A stretch of 64,000 nt of DNA from a virus. Its lineage: Duplodnaviria; Caudoviricetes. The notes below the pieces were generated by a model. That model made no database searches. It was not told the origin of the DNA and saw nothing but the letters and a program-made list of their open reading frames with translations. Within the stretch, counting starts at the first letter, position 1, and each line of letters opens with the position of its first letter. Shown here one piece after another: positions 1-63,491 of this stretch. The stretch lies in the IMG/VR virus record IMGVR_UViG_3300032330_001398; one strand, 5' to 3'. The position numbers were made by a program, and so were the translations under genes.

Positions 1-195
1 ACTACCACTACCACTACCACAACCACCAAGCCAACAACAACCACAACCACCAAGCCAACAACAACTACCACTACCACTACCACTACCACAACCATCAAGC
101 CAACAACAACCACAACCACAGTAAAGCCAACAACTACTACTAGCACAACCACTACATCAAGACCAACAACAACTACTAGTACAACAACTACATAT
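1..195 (+). repeat. Degenerate ACN-codon tandem repeats (TTKPTTTT, ~24-bp period)
   Basis: accaccaagccaacaacaaccaca-like units and actacc runs encoding poly-Thr. Confidence 0.85.
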
Positions 196-381
196 CCACC
201 ATGCCTTGATCCCACTCCTCCATGTGGAAGTAGTAATAATAATGGTCTATGTGAAAATAAAGGATATTATTCTGGATATGTTAGTTATCCCGGCTGTTCT
301 TGTGAGCAAGGTTTTACTGGAGGATTTATTCAAGTAGCATTTGAGAATGGAATTACTTGTTGCTGTAGATATGACTATTAA
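1..381 (+). CDS. Partial (5'-truncated) Thr-rich mucin-like protein with C-terminal 8-Cys module
   Basis: Frame 1 open from base 1 to TAA at 379-381: TTTTTTTTTKPTTTTTTKP...TTYPPCLDPTPPCGSSNNNGLCENKGYYSGYVSYPGCSCEQGFTGGFIQVAFENGITCCCRYDY. Absent from the ORF track (no start in window). Confidence 0.8.
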   Translation, partial: TTTTTTTTTKPTTTTTTKPTTTTTTTTTTTTIKPTTTTTTVKPTTTTSTTTTSRPTTTTSTTTTYPPCLDPTPPCGSSNNNGLCENKGYYSGYVSYPGCSCEQGFTGGFIQVAFENGITCCCRYDY

Positions 382-395
382 CTAAGAAATAAATT

Positions 396-2102
396 ATGAC
401 ACAAGATCCATGTAAATGCGGCGAACTTTACTTACCAAAAGGTGATATATTTTCACCTAAAAATGGTATGAGAGTTCGTATAATAACCGAGAATTCCTAT
501 TATGATGATACATTATTGCACGACGTTGATGTTTTTATTAGTAATGGTAGATTACTATTAACCTTGTCGCCCAAAATTAAATCAGACCGCCCAATCTATG
601 CTAAGAGTATCATTCTATACTTAGGTTCTGATATTGAAGATAGCCCAATCATAAAGAACGCTATACAGATAGTTATTAAAGTTGCACAAACAAAGAAAGT
701 TCTTATAAACAAAGTAATAGGTTCTTTGGGAGAGTCCAACGAGTTCTATTTTAGTTCATTTTTACCAAATAACTTATCTTTACTTCTTAATAGTTGTGAT
801 ATTGCTGATCAAATAGACTTAAATAATAAAACCCTACAAATAGAAATTTATAGCGTTTGTGATAATTCTGAAATATTGTGTTGTAATGTGTTACCAAGTA
901 AATTCTATCTATATAATATTAGAACAGTTAATTGCCCAACTACAACAACTATACGTCCAACAACAACAATCATCCCCACAACAACGCCACAACCTGTGTG
1001 TGATCCTAGATATTATAGTTCAGCGTGGGGTTGTGATAATTTAGTACCACATGGCCCACCTTCTTTATCGATGACCTATACTGTTAATGCTGGTAGCACT
1101 TTTGGTTCACGCGATTATGGAAGAGTATTTCAGAATACTGGATTTAAGTTAAATGCTGGAGACAGCTATAAAATAAGAGCGGCAGGATGTGTTTCTTCTT
1201 ATTGTATTCCTAATTCTTGCTGGGGTCATGGTCCAAATTTTCAACCAGAATTAGTTGGTTTTATTTTGACCAAACGAACCTATGGCGCATCGTGGCCAAT
1301 TCTTGTTTATGATAACGACCCTTCCGATAGAGATGGTATACCAAGCGCAATAAAATTTGGATCTTATTATGAAGGCGTAGCGTCCGAAGATGGAGAATTA
1401 TATCTTGGCGTTAATGATCCTTTTAGAAGTTTGTATAATATTGGATCATATTGCGTTCTTGTTGAAAAGATATTACCAACCACAACAACCACAACCACAA
1501 CCACAACCACGACTACAACAACCACAACTACGACCACAACAACGTGCGCTCCAACATGTGATGGTTATTGTAAATGCTATGACGAATCTCATTTTAGAGG
1601 TGATAATTATTATGGAACAAGTCCAGATGGTTCAACTTGTTCCAATGGAAATTCTTATTTAGGAACTGTAAGTACGTTTATTATAAATGGTCAATCAGTT
1701 AGATGCTGTTGTAATCAAATTATACAACAACCAACAACAACTACAACTAGCACTACCAGTACAACAACCAGCACTACAACTAGCACTACAACTAGCACCA
1801 CTACTAGCACCACTACTAGCACCACTACTAGCACCACTACTAGCACCACAACCAGTACTACAACCAGTACCACTACTAGCACTACAAGCACCACTAGTAG
1901 TACAACTAGTACCAGCACCACAACAACATGCGCTCCAACCTGTGAAGGTCAATGTGAATGTGGTGGAAATTATTATGGTGGCAGCGATTATGGCGGTAGC
2001 GATCCAGTTGGAAATTATTGCTTAAGTGGTGGAGTAGACGGTGTAATACAACAGTTCGTAATAAATGGTCAACAGAAAAAATGCTGTTGTCAAACCAATT
2101 AG
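396..2102 (+). CDS. Mucin-like putative virion protein: N-terminal domain, PA-IL/LecA-like lectin domain, poly-Thr and STTT stalks, two 8-Cys modules
   Basis: 568-aa ORF; QNTG...GD..I.AAG...GP...LVG...G.LYLGVND...N.GSY.V.V pattern (~1071-1470) resembles PA-IL-like domains; ~22 consecutive Thr; two CAPTC...NG...CCC modules. Confidence 0.75.
   Translation: MTQDPCKCGELYLPKGDIFSPKNGMRVRIITENSYYDDTLLHDVDVFISNGRLLLTLSPKIKSDRPIYAKSIILYLGSDIEDSPIIKNAIQIVIKVAQTKKVLINKVIGSLGESNEFYFSSFLPNNLSLLLNSCDIADQIDLNNKTLQIEIYSVCDNSEILCCNVLPSKFYLYNIRTVNCPTTTTIRPTTTIIPTTTPQPVCDPRYYSSAWGCDNLVPHGPPSLSMTYTVNAGSTFGSRDYGRVFQNTGFKLNAGDSYKIRAAGCVSSYCIPNSCWGHGPNFQPELVGFILTKRTYGASWPILVYDNDPSDRDGIPSAIKFGSYYEGVASEDGELYLGVNDPFRSLYNIGSYCVLVEKILPTTTTTTTTTTTTTTTTTTTTTTCAPTCDGYCKCYDESHFRGDNYYGTSPDGSTCSNGNSYLGTVSTFIINGQSVRCCCNQIIQQPTTTTTSTTSTTTSTTTSTTTSTTTSTTTSTTTSTTTSTTTSTTTSTTTSTTSTTSSTTSTSTTTTCAPTCEGQCECGGNYYGGSDYGGSDPVGNYCLSGGVDGVIQQFVINGQQKKCCCQTN
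1770..1910 (+). repeat. 12-bp tandem repeat encoding STTT
   Basis: agcaccactact x4 perfect (1794-1841), agcactacaact x2 upstream, degenerate copies downstream. Confidence 0.9.
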
Positions 2103-2146
2103 AGCTATAATATATAGGATTTTGAAATCACAATGAAAGGAAATTT

Positions 2147-61736: not shown

Positions 61737-61746
61737 AATGTTCTCC

Positions 61747-62625
61747 TTAAGTTAAATCTGATACGTTAGTTTTTGACCACATTTTACAAGACCAATAATT
61801 TGCTTTCCACTTAGGGCCGGGAGTTTCACAATTATGCCTTGCTCTATAACTCTTTCTTCTGTTTGGATCATCTCGCTTAATTTCCATATTGGGATCACCA
61901 AAGTTTACCTTGACAACATTACCCTTATCGTTCTTAACATATACTGAAAATTTCTTTGGACCGCTTGGTGTTCGAAATGGTTTATTAAGTTTTACTTTTG
62001 GATTTTCAGCAGCGTCTGCATTTTCTGTTTCATTATTATAAAGCATATAATCATATGCTGTTTCCATATGAGTTTCAGCTTTTGAAACACTATCTTGTAC
62101 CCAAGGTGGAATTTCTGCAACACCCATAGTATTTAATAAATCAAGTATTTGTCCACACTGATTCATAATTTTAGTAACTTGCGATTTAAGCATATTAACT
62201 TCTTCTTCTGGACTATCTCCAGATTGAGCTTTCTTAAAAGCATCCTTTGATGGTCGATCTGGATCTCCCGGCTTTGCTGGTCTATACTTTTTACCTTCGC
62301 GTTCCTTTTTCTTGCGAATGTTATCCCATAAACCCGGTTTTTCTCCAGCGATATTCCATTCCTCAACTTCCTCATCAAAATCTTCATATTCTGCTTCCGA
62401 TGGGATATATAGATTTTCTTCATTAATTTCTTCTTCGTACCCAATAGCAAAACTCATTCTAAAATCAGCACCTTCAACGCAGTCGCAGTCTGCTGTTGCT
62501 TGGTCTAAACAAATAGCAACTCTCTGGTTGTTATCTGGATAATCTTTTTTCATAACTTTGTCGCCCATACATCTAGCAACAAATTTTGTTTTATCTTCAT
62601 CTTTTCTCTTATGTGGAATGGGCAT
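61747..62625 (-). CDS. Modular hypothetical phage protein (basic modules, acidic linkers)
   Basis: MPIP...FVARCM; KPGLWDNI; PPWVQD.VSKA; KVKLNKPFRTP.GPKKF.VYV...FGDP...YWSC. Confidence 0.75.
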   Translation of the reverse strand: MPIPHKRKDEDKTKFVARCMGDKVMKKDYPDNNQRVAICLDQATADCDCVEGADFRMSFAIGYEEEINEENLYIPSEAEYEDFDEEVEEWNIAGEKPGLWDNIRKKKEREGKKYRPAKPGDPDRPSKDAFKKAQSGDSPEEEVNMLKSQVTKIMNQCGQILDLLNTMGVAEIPPWVQDSVSKAETHMETAYDYMLYNNETENADAAENPKVKLNKPFRTPSGPKKFSVYVKNDKGNVVKVNFGDPNMEIKRDDPNRRKSYRARHNCETPGPKWKANYWSCKMWSKTNVSDLT

Positions 62626-62627
62626 AA

Positions 62628-63491
62628 TTAAGTCTCCAGAATTAAATTCTTAGCTTGATCTAAAATGTAATCTATACTTCCCGGCGGGATTTTATTTTTG
62701 AAATGTTCATATGCTGATGTTATCATTTCATGATTTGGGTCTTTGGTTATTTCTAACCATCCAACAAAATAGTTCCATATTCTATCTTCTAATATTAATG
62801 GATATTTAACACCGTTTGGGCGATTAAATCTATGTAACCATTTTAATTGTGGTATACAGATTGCTTTACCGCCATTACGTCTAAATTTCTCATGTATATA
62901 TCCTTCTTCTCCACCAAATCCTTTGAAATGGGGATTAAATCCCTGCCAATTTTTTGTTTCGCATGAAAATAATCCTAATCCCATCATTGGTATTTCAAAT
63001 GGTAGTCCAGCTTCATAAGCTTCTTTATTTGAATTCCATATCCCATACATATCTCCTCGCCATTCTGGAGAAAATTCTGTAGAGTAATTCAATAAATCAT
63101 CATAAATAAGCGGACCTTGAACAATGTCTTTACAATCTTCATTATTCTCGTAGTATTCTAGTAATTTTTCTAAACCACCATTTTCTATGAATACGTGGCA
63201 GTCCATTGAAATAGTATATTTACCAGAAGAGTTTGTAAAAATCTCATTTCTTACAGCAGTACTAGTTCTATTTTTAAATGGAATATATTTTCCTTTTCCA
63301 GAAGTCCATCCTTGAATTAGACTTCTAACCGATTCTCCGTGTGGACCATCTGGATTATTGTCTATCACCAATAGTTCATAATCAATATTCTTCAACACTG
63401 GTTGATACATTCTCAAAGCTTGTATGCTAAAATAGACTCCATCAAAGTCATCATACGTTGCCATGCCAATTGTCAATAATTTATCCATCAT
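62628..63491 (-). CDS. GT-A glycosyltransferase with ppGalNAc-T (GT27)-like motifs
   Basis: TIGMATY, LLVIDN, DCH (DxH), PMMGLGLFS, FGGEE, GG....P....H.F. Confidence 0.8.
   Translation of the reverse strand: MMDKLLTIGMATYDDFDGVYFSIQALRMYQPVLKNIDYELLVIDNNPDGPHGESVRSLIQGWTSGKGKYIPFKNRTSTAVRNEIFTNSSGKYTISMDCHVFIENGGLEKLLEYYENNEDCKDIVQGPLIYDDLLNYSTEFSPEWRGDMYGIWNSNKEAYEAGLPFEIPMMGLGLFSCETKNWQGFNPHFKGFGGEEGYIHEKFRRNGGKAICIPQLKWLHRFNRPNGVKYPLILEDRIWNYFVGWLEITKDPNHEMITSAYEHFKNKIPPGSIDYILDQAKNLILET

Follow-up and report, generated by a model that had tools for sequence, protein, structure and literature searches.

The 64,000-nt stretch of viral DNA analyzed here (Duplodnaviria; Caudoviricetes; IMG/VR record IMGVR_UViG_3300032330_001398; hereafter, the window) comes from an uncultured, lytic-type, aquatic tailed phage of ~152 kb, and encodes at 62628-63491 a soluble GT-A glycosyltransferase that resembles the polypeptide N-acetylgalactosaminyltransferases (GalNAc-Ts) of family GT27. 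At the opposite end of the window, two adjacent genes encode proteins with long Thr/Ser tracts. Animal GT27 enzymes initiate mucin O-glycans on Thr/Ser residues of tracts rich in Pro, Thr and Ser. The best reading of the genes and of the predicted structure is that the Thr tracts are O-glycosylated by the GT27-like enzyme, which we consider fairly probable. Virus-encoded protein glycosylation is a kind of system that is already known, and its assignment here is partly supported, with strong comparative evidence from related genomes.

A GT27-like fold and active site

The AlphaFold2 (AF2) model of the 287-amino acid (aa) enzyme, built from 20 homologues, had a predicted local distance difference test score (pLDDT) of 91.3 and a predicted template modeling score (pTM) of 0.89. 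When the PDB was searched with Foldseek, polypeptide GalNAc-Ts filled the top ~50 places (E 5e-16, TMq 0.73). Exhaustive comparison with 48,161 representative chains by VIA-align gave mouse GalNAc-T1 at Z 22.7 (root-mean-square deviation (rmsd) 3.3, 264 residues) and Toxoplasma GalNAc-T3 at Z 22.1, and the next GT-A enzyme, K4CP, followed at Z 18.2 (218 residues), leaving GT27 ahead by ~4 Z units. Solved GT27 structures include GalNAc-T1 (8v9q), GalNAc-T2 (2ffu and 4d0z), GalNAc-T10 (2d7i) and Toxoplasma GalNAc-T3 (8uhv). In the alignment to GalNAc-T10, the LDCH motif of the phage enzyme falls on LDSH, FGGEEG (191-197) falls on WGGEQ with Phe replacing Trp, and the His of WLHRF falls on the third metal ligand. 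The residues D97, H99, E195, E196 and H220 are invariant in the 20 homologues. The ten residues following H220 form the least confident stretch of the model, which we take to fit the mobile active-site loop of GT27.

The phage enzyme thus shares with eukaryotic GT27 enzymes a structural match over its whole 287 residues, a metal site made of DxH and a distal His, and a GGE at the Gal/GalNAc-T position; its genomic partners, described below, are Thr/Pro-rich mucin-like tracts. Unlike them, it has no ricin-type lectin domain (its entire length of 287 residues aligns to the catalytic domain alone), no membrane anchor (the maximum 19-residue Kyte-Doolittle mean is 0.88) and no secretory route; it is about half their size and would act in the bacterial cytoplasm. 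Its sequence similarity to GT27 is weak as well: GalNAc-T10 matched with E 0.2 in phmmer and 0.021 in a profile search, over an alignment that spans the whole catalytic domain, and an NCBIfam search with the enzyme gave no match. By every feature testable here, the modeled protein would behave as a GT27 catalytic domain, and the fold (AF2, Foldseek and VIA-align) and the motif alignment agree in bearing out a previous reading of the window from its sequence alone (the sequence-only reading), which had proposed a GalNAc-T-like enzyme at this locus. We did not file the enzyme as GT27, because two architectural features fail and its membership by sequence is not significant.

Thr/Ser tracts in the fiber block

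The plus strand of the window, from 1 to ~45,968, carries a tail, fiber and structural block, and the minus strand from 46,092 to 64,000 carries a replication block. Five IMG/VR contigs (G001, G002, G003, G004 and G005) are gene-for-gene syntenic with the window over 8-64 kb, including the complete genomes G001 (166.6 kb, with terminal repeats) and G002; genome-wide statements below are based on these five and on four more distant relatives.

The first two open reading frames (ORFs) of the plus strand, 1-381 and 396-2102, are adjacent and show a beads-on-a-string organization with Thr/Ser tracts of 20-66 residues. In the former, a 64-residue Thr tract (1-192), whose T runs are interrupted by KP or RP, leads into a Cys-rich module of ~60 aa ending in CCC. 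The latter is composed, in order, of a module (residues 1-170), a T/P linker (PTTTTIRPTTTIIPTTTPQP, ~936-998 by ORF translation), a module at residues ~200-360, 22 Thr residues, a Cys-rich module, a 66-aa TTTS tract and a further Cys-rich module. Six-frame translation locates the 22-Thr tract at 1476-1544 and the 66-aa tract of TTTS repeats at 1731-1928, each of them preceding a ~55-aa Cys-rich module that ends in CCC. Since the Thr codons within the tracts are mixed (ACA, ACC, ACT and ACG), the tracts are not slippage repeats, and it is the protein sequence that has been kept rather than a DNA repeat. The phage tail repeat protein encoded nearby (2799-5123) marks the block as a fiber module.

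The sequence-only reading had counted at least three tract-bearing structural proteins and had placed lectin tips on them. The two adjacent ORFs do bear long tracts, but the third, 9644-11536, has only a short Thr-rich tail of about 7-10 residues and is a weak candidate as an acceptor. This tail is not kept in relatives, and C-terminal Thr tails were accordingly rejected as a conserved feature. Lectin-like domains occur in the poly-Thr proteins of relatives (Laminin_G_3, the FGE-sulfatase/C-type-lectin fold and fn3) but could not be demonstrated in the ORFs of the window. ORF 1-381 has no Pfam family and no homologue among the relatives, and Pfam and PHROG searches with ORF 396-2102 gave no match. 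For the poly-Thr protein of the window, ESM Atlas returned only LssY_C/PA-IL-like models with TM <0.4, which leaves the lectin label of this protein unsupported. The only homologues of its module 5-170 are P0271 and P0272, in which the module lies between Thr linkers and beside a Laminin_G_3 domain. Homologues of the downstream gene 2147-2746 lie within ~3.5 kb of poly-T/S genes in the relatives, and directly adjoin them in G001, G002 and G041.

Further Thr-rich proteins were seen in G043, a complete genome of 152.7 kb (L265-L272). Its ORF 73680-74954 (minus strand) is a homologue of the window's 13683-14768, a protein of the tail tube/sheath region, and has a Thr-rich C-terminus (TTTTTAPTTTSAPTTTSAPGG) that recalls the glycosylated C-terminal tails reported for mycobacteriophage tube proteins. 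TTTSGP-repeat proteins are encoded at both ends of this contig.

Co-occurrence and adjacency of enzyme and tracts in phages

The sequence-only reading implied that the GT27-like gene and poly-Thr ORFs co-occur across related phages, and this was found. Translation of the contigs revealed long T/S tracts in all seven CheckV-complete enzyme-bearing genomes (G001, G002, G041, G038, G042, G052 and G043). Large ORFs contain the tracts in each of the five syntenic relatives and also in G041, G038 and G043, and the tracts adjoin the enzyme gene in G042 and G052. The codon pattern (WCN)12 was present in 17 of 26 enzyme-bearing contigs and in none of 26 arbitrary IMG/VR contigs (36-610 kb; Fisher p 2.8e-7). 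Both this pattern and (ACN)10 score G001 and G002 as tract-free, whereas translation shows their tracts; (WCN)12 therefore undercounts, because the TSTS repeats of these two genomes escape it. In the reverse direction, three of 34 contigs picked by an (ACN)14 run encode a strong member of the enzyme family (E 7e-105, 2e-95 and 2.5e-42), compared with a share of ~0.02% for enzyme-bearing contigs in the whole collection.

We then considered gene order at 80 enzyme loci. At 63 of them, the enzyme gene is located between a PD-(D/E)XK nuclease gene and a polymerase gene, as in the window, and at the remaining 17 it is relocated. At nine of the 17 relocated loci, the enzyme gene is preceded by a poly-Thr ORF on its own strand, at a distance of 0-814 bp. 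In the L003-L005 clade, the poly-Thr ORF and the enzyme ORF overlap by a few bases and are translationally coupled; here, and at L034, L059 and L066, the pair is embedded in a fiber module, and the flanking fiber proteins have the N-terminus …RRGT…W…NP.L..GE.G. The poly-Thr proteins adjoining the enzyme in relatives contain FGE-sulfatase (C-type-lectin fold), fn3 or concanavalin-like domains. Loci adjacent to poly-Thr genes fall in at least three lineages of the enzyme tree, where L003-L005 branch as sister (support 98) to the enzyme of the window. Proteins shared between the window and G041, the contig of L003, are 30-50% identical, and the enzyme is 79% identical. A similar arrangement is present in the unrelated phage G038 (54 kb, 70% GC, terminal repeats), which encodes at L247:11314-16800 a 936-aa poly-Thr protein, a fusion of the GT27-like domain with Methyltransf_24, and a second GT2.

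The gene next to the enzyme in the window (61747-62625, minus strand) encodes a protein of 292 aa whose central part is acidic, with a highly conserved C-terminal region of ~80 residues and a weak match to DUF5754; it retains 77-94% identity even in the distant G041 and G043. It neighbors the enzyme at 62 of the 80 loci and was tried as an enzyme partner, which was rejected because it is located elsewhere in G041 and G043.

A widespread family with bacterial members

The family to which the enzyme belongs comprises 2,982 matches in 90% clusters and 1,706 clusters at 50% identity, the latter mostly multidomain proteins of 500-1,350 aa. It is found at 476 IMG/VR loci (of ~2.9 million contigs, ~0.02%) and in 382 bacterial species genomes. 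In the records examined, its members are named only "hypothetical protein" or with a generic glycosyltransferase label, and our literature search found no paper on GT27-like enzymes or mucin-like fibers in phages.

Bacterial members are typically ~600-aa fusions of HprK_rel_A with the glycosyltransferase domain, or longer proteins with extra GT25 or GT2 domains, and their catalytic domains share 45-59% identity with the phage enzyme. The fusion genes adjoin PqqD-family and NTP_transf_5 genes, as in the HPr-rel-A system (TIGR04352 HprK-related kinase A with PqqD), an uncharacterized peptide-modification neighborhood. The phage enzyme, in contrast, is a bare glycosyltransferase domain, and Pfam scans of 39 window ORFs detected neither HprK_rel_A nor PqqD. 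A Thr-rich ORF was present within 2.5 kb at ~30 of the 80 bacterial loci, with 38 such ORFs among 1,791 near ORFs versus nine among 2,021 farther ORFs. Many of them encode 70-130 aa with a twin-arginine-type signal (RRxxLK), a W-[TMV]-[KR]-P-V-V…P-A-H-A motif and a mostly-Thr tail of 15-60 residues containing AP or PP. Thus the bacterial partners are small poly-Thr proteins with a twin-arginine translocation (Tat) signal and not fibers; they are found in Alphaproteobacteria, Desulfobulbales, Acidobacteriota and others. By their sequences, they look like an undescribed protein family that is probably glycosylated. A pairing of enzyme and tract that recurs in settings as dissimilar as phages and bacteria is difficult to account for if the tract is not the substrate. 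Co-occurrence, enrichment, and the adjacency seen in three or more further phage lineages and in bacteria therefore support the earlier proposal of a GT27-like initiator acting on fiber Thr tracts, but its "mucin-type" (GalNAc) part is only an analogy.

Among the bacterial loci, small proteins of 70-180 aa, each with this type of signal, the W-[TMV]-[KR]-P-V-V…P-A-H-A motif and a poly-Thr tail, are encoded just upstream of the fusion genes and near PqqD and NTP_transf_5 at L405:4654-4941, L408:4793-5017, L409:4535-4906 and L412:1339-1557. Further such loci are L461:4106-4898, with three tandem copies, L261:8067-8588 and L264:5294-5836, and some lie near TatA/B.

The glycosyltransferase cluster of the replication block

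Ten ORFs are clustered at 48200-56575 on the minus strand (Table 1). Nine clustered glycosylation genes had been proposed; eight are supported as glycosyltransferase-like or sugar-activating, and 51733-52164 and 48200-48715 are without assignment. The core of the cluster is kept in all five syntenic relatives, and its GT4-type gene GT4a is about as conserved as the polymerase and replication genes. GT4a is also present in G041, G042 and G052, and absent from G038, G043 and G049; in G041, GT4a and GT4b remain by the replication genes. A conserved ten-gene glycosyltransferase module and a dispersed arrangement of enzyme and tracts are particular to this phage. The model of 51033-51770 matches TarS with rmsd 2.9 over 152 residues, its top 22 structural matches are all GT-A glycosyltransferases, and a profile comparison with TarS gave E 0.035. 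Its invariant columns are confined to the Zn domain, and the absence of a conserved DxD or acidic motif suggests that it may be non-catalytic. Comparison of GT4a with solved structures was uninformative.

With three GT4 enzymes, one GT-B-like protein, two or three that are GT-A-like and a nucleotidyltransferase, the cluster probably supplies and extends a glycan. That it acts on the same acceptor as the GT27-like enzyme is rather doubtful: the sequence-only reading had put both in one pathway, which is not supported by the complete genomes G043 and G038, where the cluster is absent while the enzyme and the tracts are kept.

Two observations concern sugar metabolism outside the window. The only relative of GT4a in GenBank phage records is remote (23% identity) and belongs to Tetrasphaera phage TJE1 (L471, NC_019930.1 5388-10731), in a cassette upstream of the terminase genes that also includes a nucleotidyltransferase, a guanylate kinase, a nucleotide-sugar epimerase, a methyltransferase and a glycosyltransferase. 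A GDP-mannose 4,6-dehydratase (PF16363, E 4e-112) is encoded in relatives, at L107:16765-17760 (G002), G001 137966-139054 and G041 37373-38353, in each case outside the region homologous to the window; 6-deoxyhexose nucleotide sugars may therefore be made during infection.

Proposed mechanism and alternatives

From the fold, the motifs, the tracts, their co-occurrence and their adjacency, we infer the following acceptor, timing and effect. The enzyme would act as a cytoplasmic, metal-dependent GT-A transferase that takes a nucleotide sugar during infection, and would place the first sugar on Thr/Ser hydroxyls of the Pro-punctuated poly-Thr linkers (in 1-381, 396-2102 and others in the genome) before virion assembly. 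This would turn the linkers into stiff "bottle-brush" spacers, resistant to proteases, that separate small folded modules of Cys-rich or lectin-like type. More tentatively, the prokaryotic and phage family might be a functional, perhaps evolutionary, counterpart of GT27 that converts the poly-Thr fiber linkers of phages into mucin-like glycoprotein stalks and acts on small Tat-exported poly-Thr proteins in bacteria, with the ten-gene module extending the chains into a virion glycocalyx.

Several observations weigh against this reading. Thr-tract glycosylation is a prediction from genes and modeled structure, and the virion location of the poly-Thr proteins is deduced from gene position and domain types. 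At the sequence level, the enzyme resembles GT27 only marginally (E 0.02-0.2), and Pfam assigns it to the generic Glycos_transf_2 (PF00535) alone. In the window itself, the enzyme belongs to the replication module, ~60 kb from the poly-Thr genes, so that the link between them rests here on the relatives. The counts of co-occurrence are phylogenetically non-independent, with many contigs in one broad clade. Moreover, 30 of the 34 contigs picked for a poly-Thr run are without a strong family member, one having a weak GT2-type match (E 4e-11), which means that Thr tracts can exist independently of the enzyme. Finally, the cluster is separable from the enzyme/tract pair, as G043 and G038 keep the pair in complete genomes that have no GT4a.

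The sugar transferases could instead modify the phage DNA, as in the base glycosylation of T-even phages, and thus protect it from restriction. The glycosyltransferase genes do reside in the replication module, ORF 49442-50296 has one ESM Atlas feature match to a T4 glucosyltransferase cluster (score 0.92, rank 22), and glycosyltransferases of phages that hypermodify their DNA are known (Pyle et al. 2024, as cited in PMC12619734). However, the avoidance of CCWGG that the sequence-only reading had pointed out, and had taken as a hint against global sugar protection of the DNA, is real: the window has no such site versus 24-36 expected, G001 has four versus ~94-108 and G002 has eight versus ~87-104, while GATC, GGWCC, CCSGG and GCWGC are not depleted in the same counts. 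Near-elimination of CCWGG implies that the cytosines of the site are exposed to restriction, and this sequence bias points to a host carrying an EcoRII/Dcm-type restriction system. A hydroxymethylase of the ThyA family (PF00303) is absent from the complete relatives G001, G002 and G041, with control genomes positive, which strengthens the argument. In addition, the GT27-like gene lies elsewhere beside fiber genes and not beside nucleotide metabolism, L060 being the sole exception. With the sites avoided and the ThyA-family gene absent, glycosylation of the DNA is highly improbable. A different acceptor outside proteins would be an envelope polysaccharide, a lipid-linked sugar or a capsule, which the glycosyltransferases, the GT27-like one included, would build or remodel for superinfection exclusion or metabolic takeover, the Thr tracts being bare linkers. 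Consistent with this, the cluster with its nucleotidyltransferase resembles a polysaccharide cassette, relatives encode the GDP-mannose 4,6-dehydratase, the cluster and the GT27-like gene sit among early and replication genes, many glycosyltransferase and lipopolysaccharide-type genes of marine cyanophages are read in this way (PMC12801897), and most poly-Thr contigs are without the GT27-like enzyme. It leaves unexplained the translational coupling of the GT27-like gene to poly-Thr genes, or its position right behind them, in several phages that are not related to one another, as well as its linkage to small poly-Thr proteins in many bacteria. The nearest fold, furthermore, is that of a polypeptide transferase and not of a polysaccharide synthase, and the Pfam and NCBIfam scans detected no polysaccharide polymerase, flippase or lipid-carrier transferase family among the scanned genes. 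We regard this explanation as unlikely for the system as a whole; for the cluster taken by itself, a non-protein glycan is a possible product.

A further alternative divides the system into two modules, in which the GT27-like enzyme glycosylates proteins and the ten-gene cluster serves another target. In both arrangements, GT4a, GT4b and GT4c keep their place beside the genes for the single-stranded DNA-binding protein (SSB) and PolIII, whereas the GT27-like gene shifts to the fiber module in G041; enzyme and Thr tracts occur without GT4a in the complete genomes G043 and G038; and GT4a has, in GenBank phage records, only a remote relative, in the sugar cassette of TJE1. On the other hand, bacterial members are often fused to more glycosyltransferase domains (GT25 and GT2), and in G038 a second GT2 directly follows the GT27-like gene. 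Extension of the first sugar by other glycosyltransferases thus seems usual in the family, and the cluster is its sole visible source in this phage. We consider the division into two modules a serious possibility, though a less than even one.

Relation to known systems and significance

To our knowledge, initiation of mucin O-glycans by GT27-type enzymes is regarded as a eukaryotic trait, and phage virion glycosylation has been documented only in some actinophages, with unrelated enzymes. The present family of "hypothetical" enzymes is widespread, and gene order links it to poly-Thr proteins across many lineages of phages and phyla of bacteria. If the proposed glycosylation is true, viruses of prokaryotes, like bacteria, produce mucin-like glycoproteins within the cytoplasm, which would bear on the reach of fibers and their adhesion to hosts or to particles in water, on the protease resistance of virions and on the origin of GT27. 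The enzyme is small and soluble and has close homologues in cultured bacteria, with carriers such as Labrys sp. KNU-23, Bradyrhizobium diazoefficiens SZCCT0138 and Desulfofustis glycolicus DSM 9705, so the proposal is directly testable.

In mycobacteriophages, glycosyltransferases are thought, or have been shown, to glycosylate Ser/Thr-rich portions of virion proteins (Freeman et al. 2023, as cited in PMC12619734 and PMC12801897). The phage of the window is similar in that Ser/Thr-rich segments of putative virion proteins are encoded together with phage glycosyltransferases, in relatives side by side. It differs in that the mycobacteriophage glycans, according to these citing papers, are on the C-termini of capsid and tail-tube subunits, while the candidate acceptors here are long internal fiber linkers. 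The glycosyltransferase family differs as well, since neither the enzyme of the window nor that of G038 had a tblastn match in 50,697 GenBank phage records. A further resemblance is to the "moraphages", large aquatic phages of Bacteroidota with four core glycosyltransferase orthogroups whose role is not known (PMC12619734): these, too, are uncultured large aquatic phages with several core glycosyltransferases, and that paper covers neither the folds of these enzymes nor Thr tracts.

Other features of the window

Table 1 Features of the window with their coordinates, strand and supporting evidence
Coordinates	Strand	Feature	Evidence
1-381	+	3' part of a gene for a poly-Thr protein, running off the window edge	Six-frame translation
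396-2102	+	Modular 568-aa poly-Thr protein	Translation
2147-2746	+	Conserved 199-aa protein	58-68% identity in G001, G002, G041 and G043
2799-5123	+	Tail fiber protein with phage tail repeat	PF12789 PTR 1e-08; phrog_1197 tail protein
9644-11536	+	Tail protein with short Thr-rich C-terminus (ATATTTSTTTVAP, 11504-11524)	Translation, PHROG
48200-48715	-	Conserved 171-aa ORF at the cluster edge	34-69% identity in all five syntenic relatives; no Pfam match
48687-49451	-	GT2-like GT-A glycosyltransferase, weak match	PF00535 8.7e-4; NCBIfam AglG 6.5e-6; absent from G003 and G004
49442-50296	-	284-aa protein with GT-B (GT1/CgeB-like) fold	ESM Atlas TM 0.61-0.70 to GT1/Glyco_trans_1_2 clusters; kept in all five relatives
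50299-51036	-	Sugar-1-phosphate nucleotidyltransferase-like, GlmU N-terminal type	NCBIfam GlmU 1.8e-6 and weaker, residues 23-143; 54-81% identity
51033-51770	-	Cys4 zinc ribbon (1-80) and GT-A fold domain (82-245)	AF2 pLDDT 93.7; Z 13.4 to TarS
51733-52164	-	Conserved 143-aa ORF	25-60% identity in relatives; no family match
52161-53156	-	GT4-type (GT-B) glycosyltransferase, GT4c	PF00534 6.8e-17; 60-76% identity
53146-54261	-	GT4-type glycosyltransferase, GT4b	PF00534 2.1e-12; phrog_2170; 52-77% identity
54258-55913	-	GT4-type glycosyltransferase, GT4a, 551 aa	PF00534 3.2e-12; 73-88% identity
55910-56575	-	GT32-like DXD sugar-binding glycosyltransferase, accessory	PF04488 9e-12; only in G002 and G005 among relatives
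62628-63491	-	GT27-like (GalNAc-T-like) soluble GT-A glycosyltransferase, 287 aa	AF2, Foldseek, VIA-align, motifs

Megablast of both halves of the window against the 50,697 GenBank phage records gave no nucleotide match. Among four window proteins searched, only a DnaE half had a protein match in these records; the GT27-like protein and the structural protein 13683-14768 had none by tblastn. A search of the window for tRNA genes found none, and its G+C content ranges over 30-42%. The plus-strand block includes a tape-measure protein of 2061 aa (PF10145) and three other long ORFs (3760, 1561 and 1234 aa), and the replication block also encodes SSB, a ferritin-like protein and a PD-(D/E)XK nuclease.

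The DnaE-type polymerase of the replication block is split (minus strand, 56938-61164) into a part with PHP and NTPase (59518-61164) and a part with finger and HhH (56938-58497). A DnaQ-like exonuclease gene (58845-59525) and an endonuclease VII gene (58484-58885) lie between the two halves. The split with the exonuclease in between is kept in all relatives, and the endonuclease VII gene is found at this position only in the window and G005. At 5515-7299 on the plus strand, two paralogous glycine-rich proteins (PF21722 Gly_rich_2) are encoded in a region with a local GC content of 41.6% versus ~33%; the long antisense ORFs over this region are artefacts of its composition.

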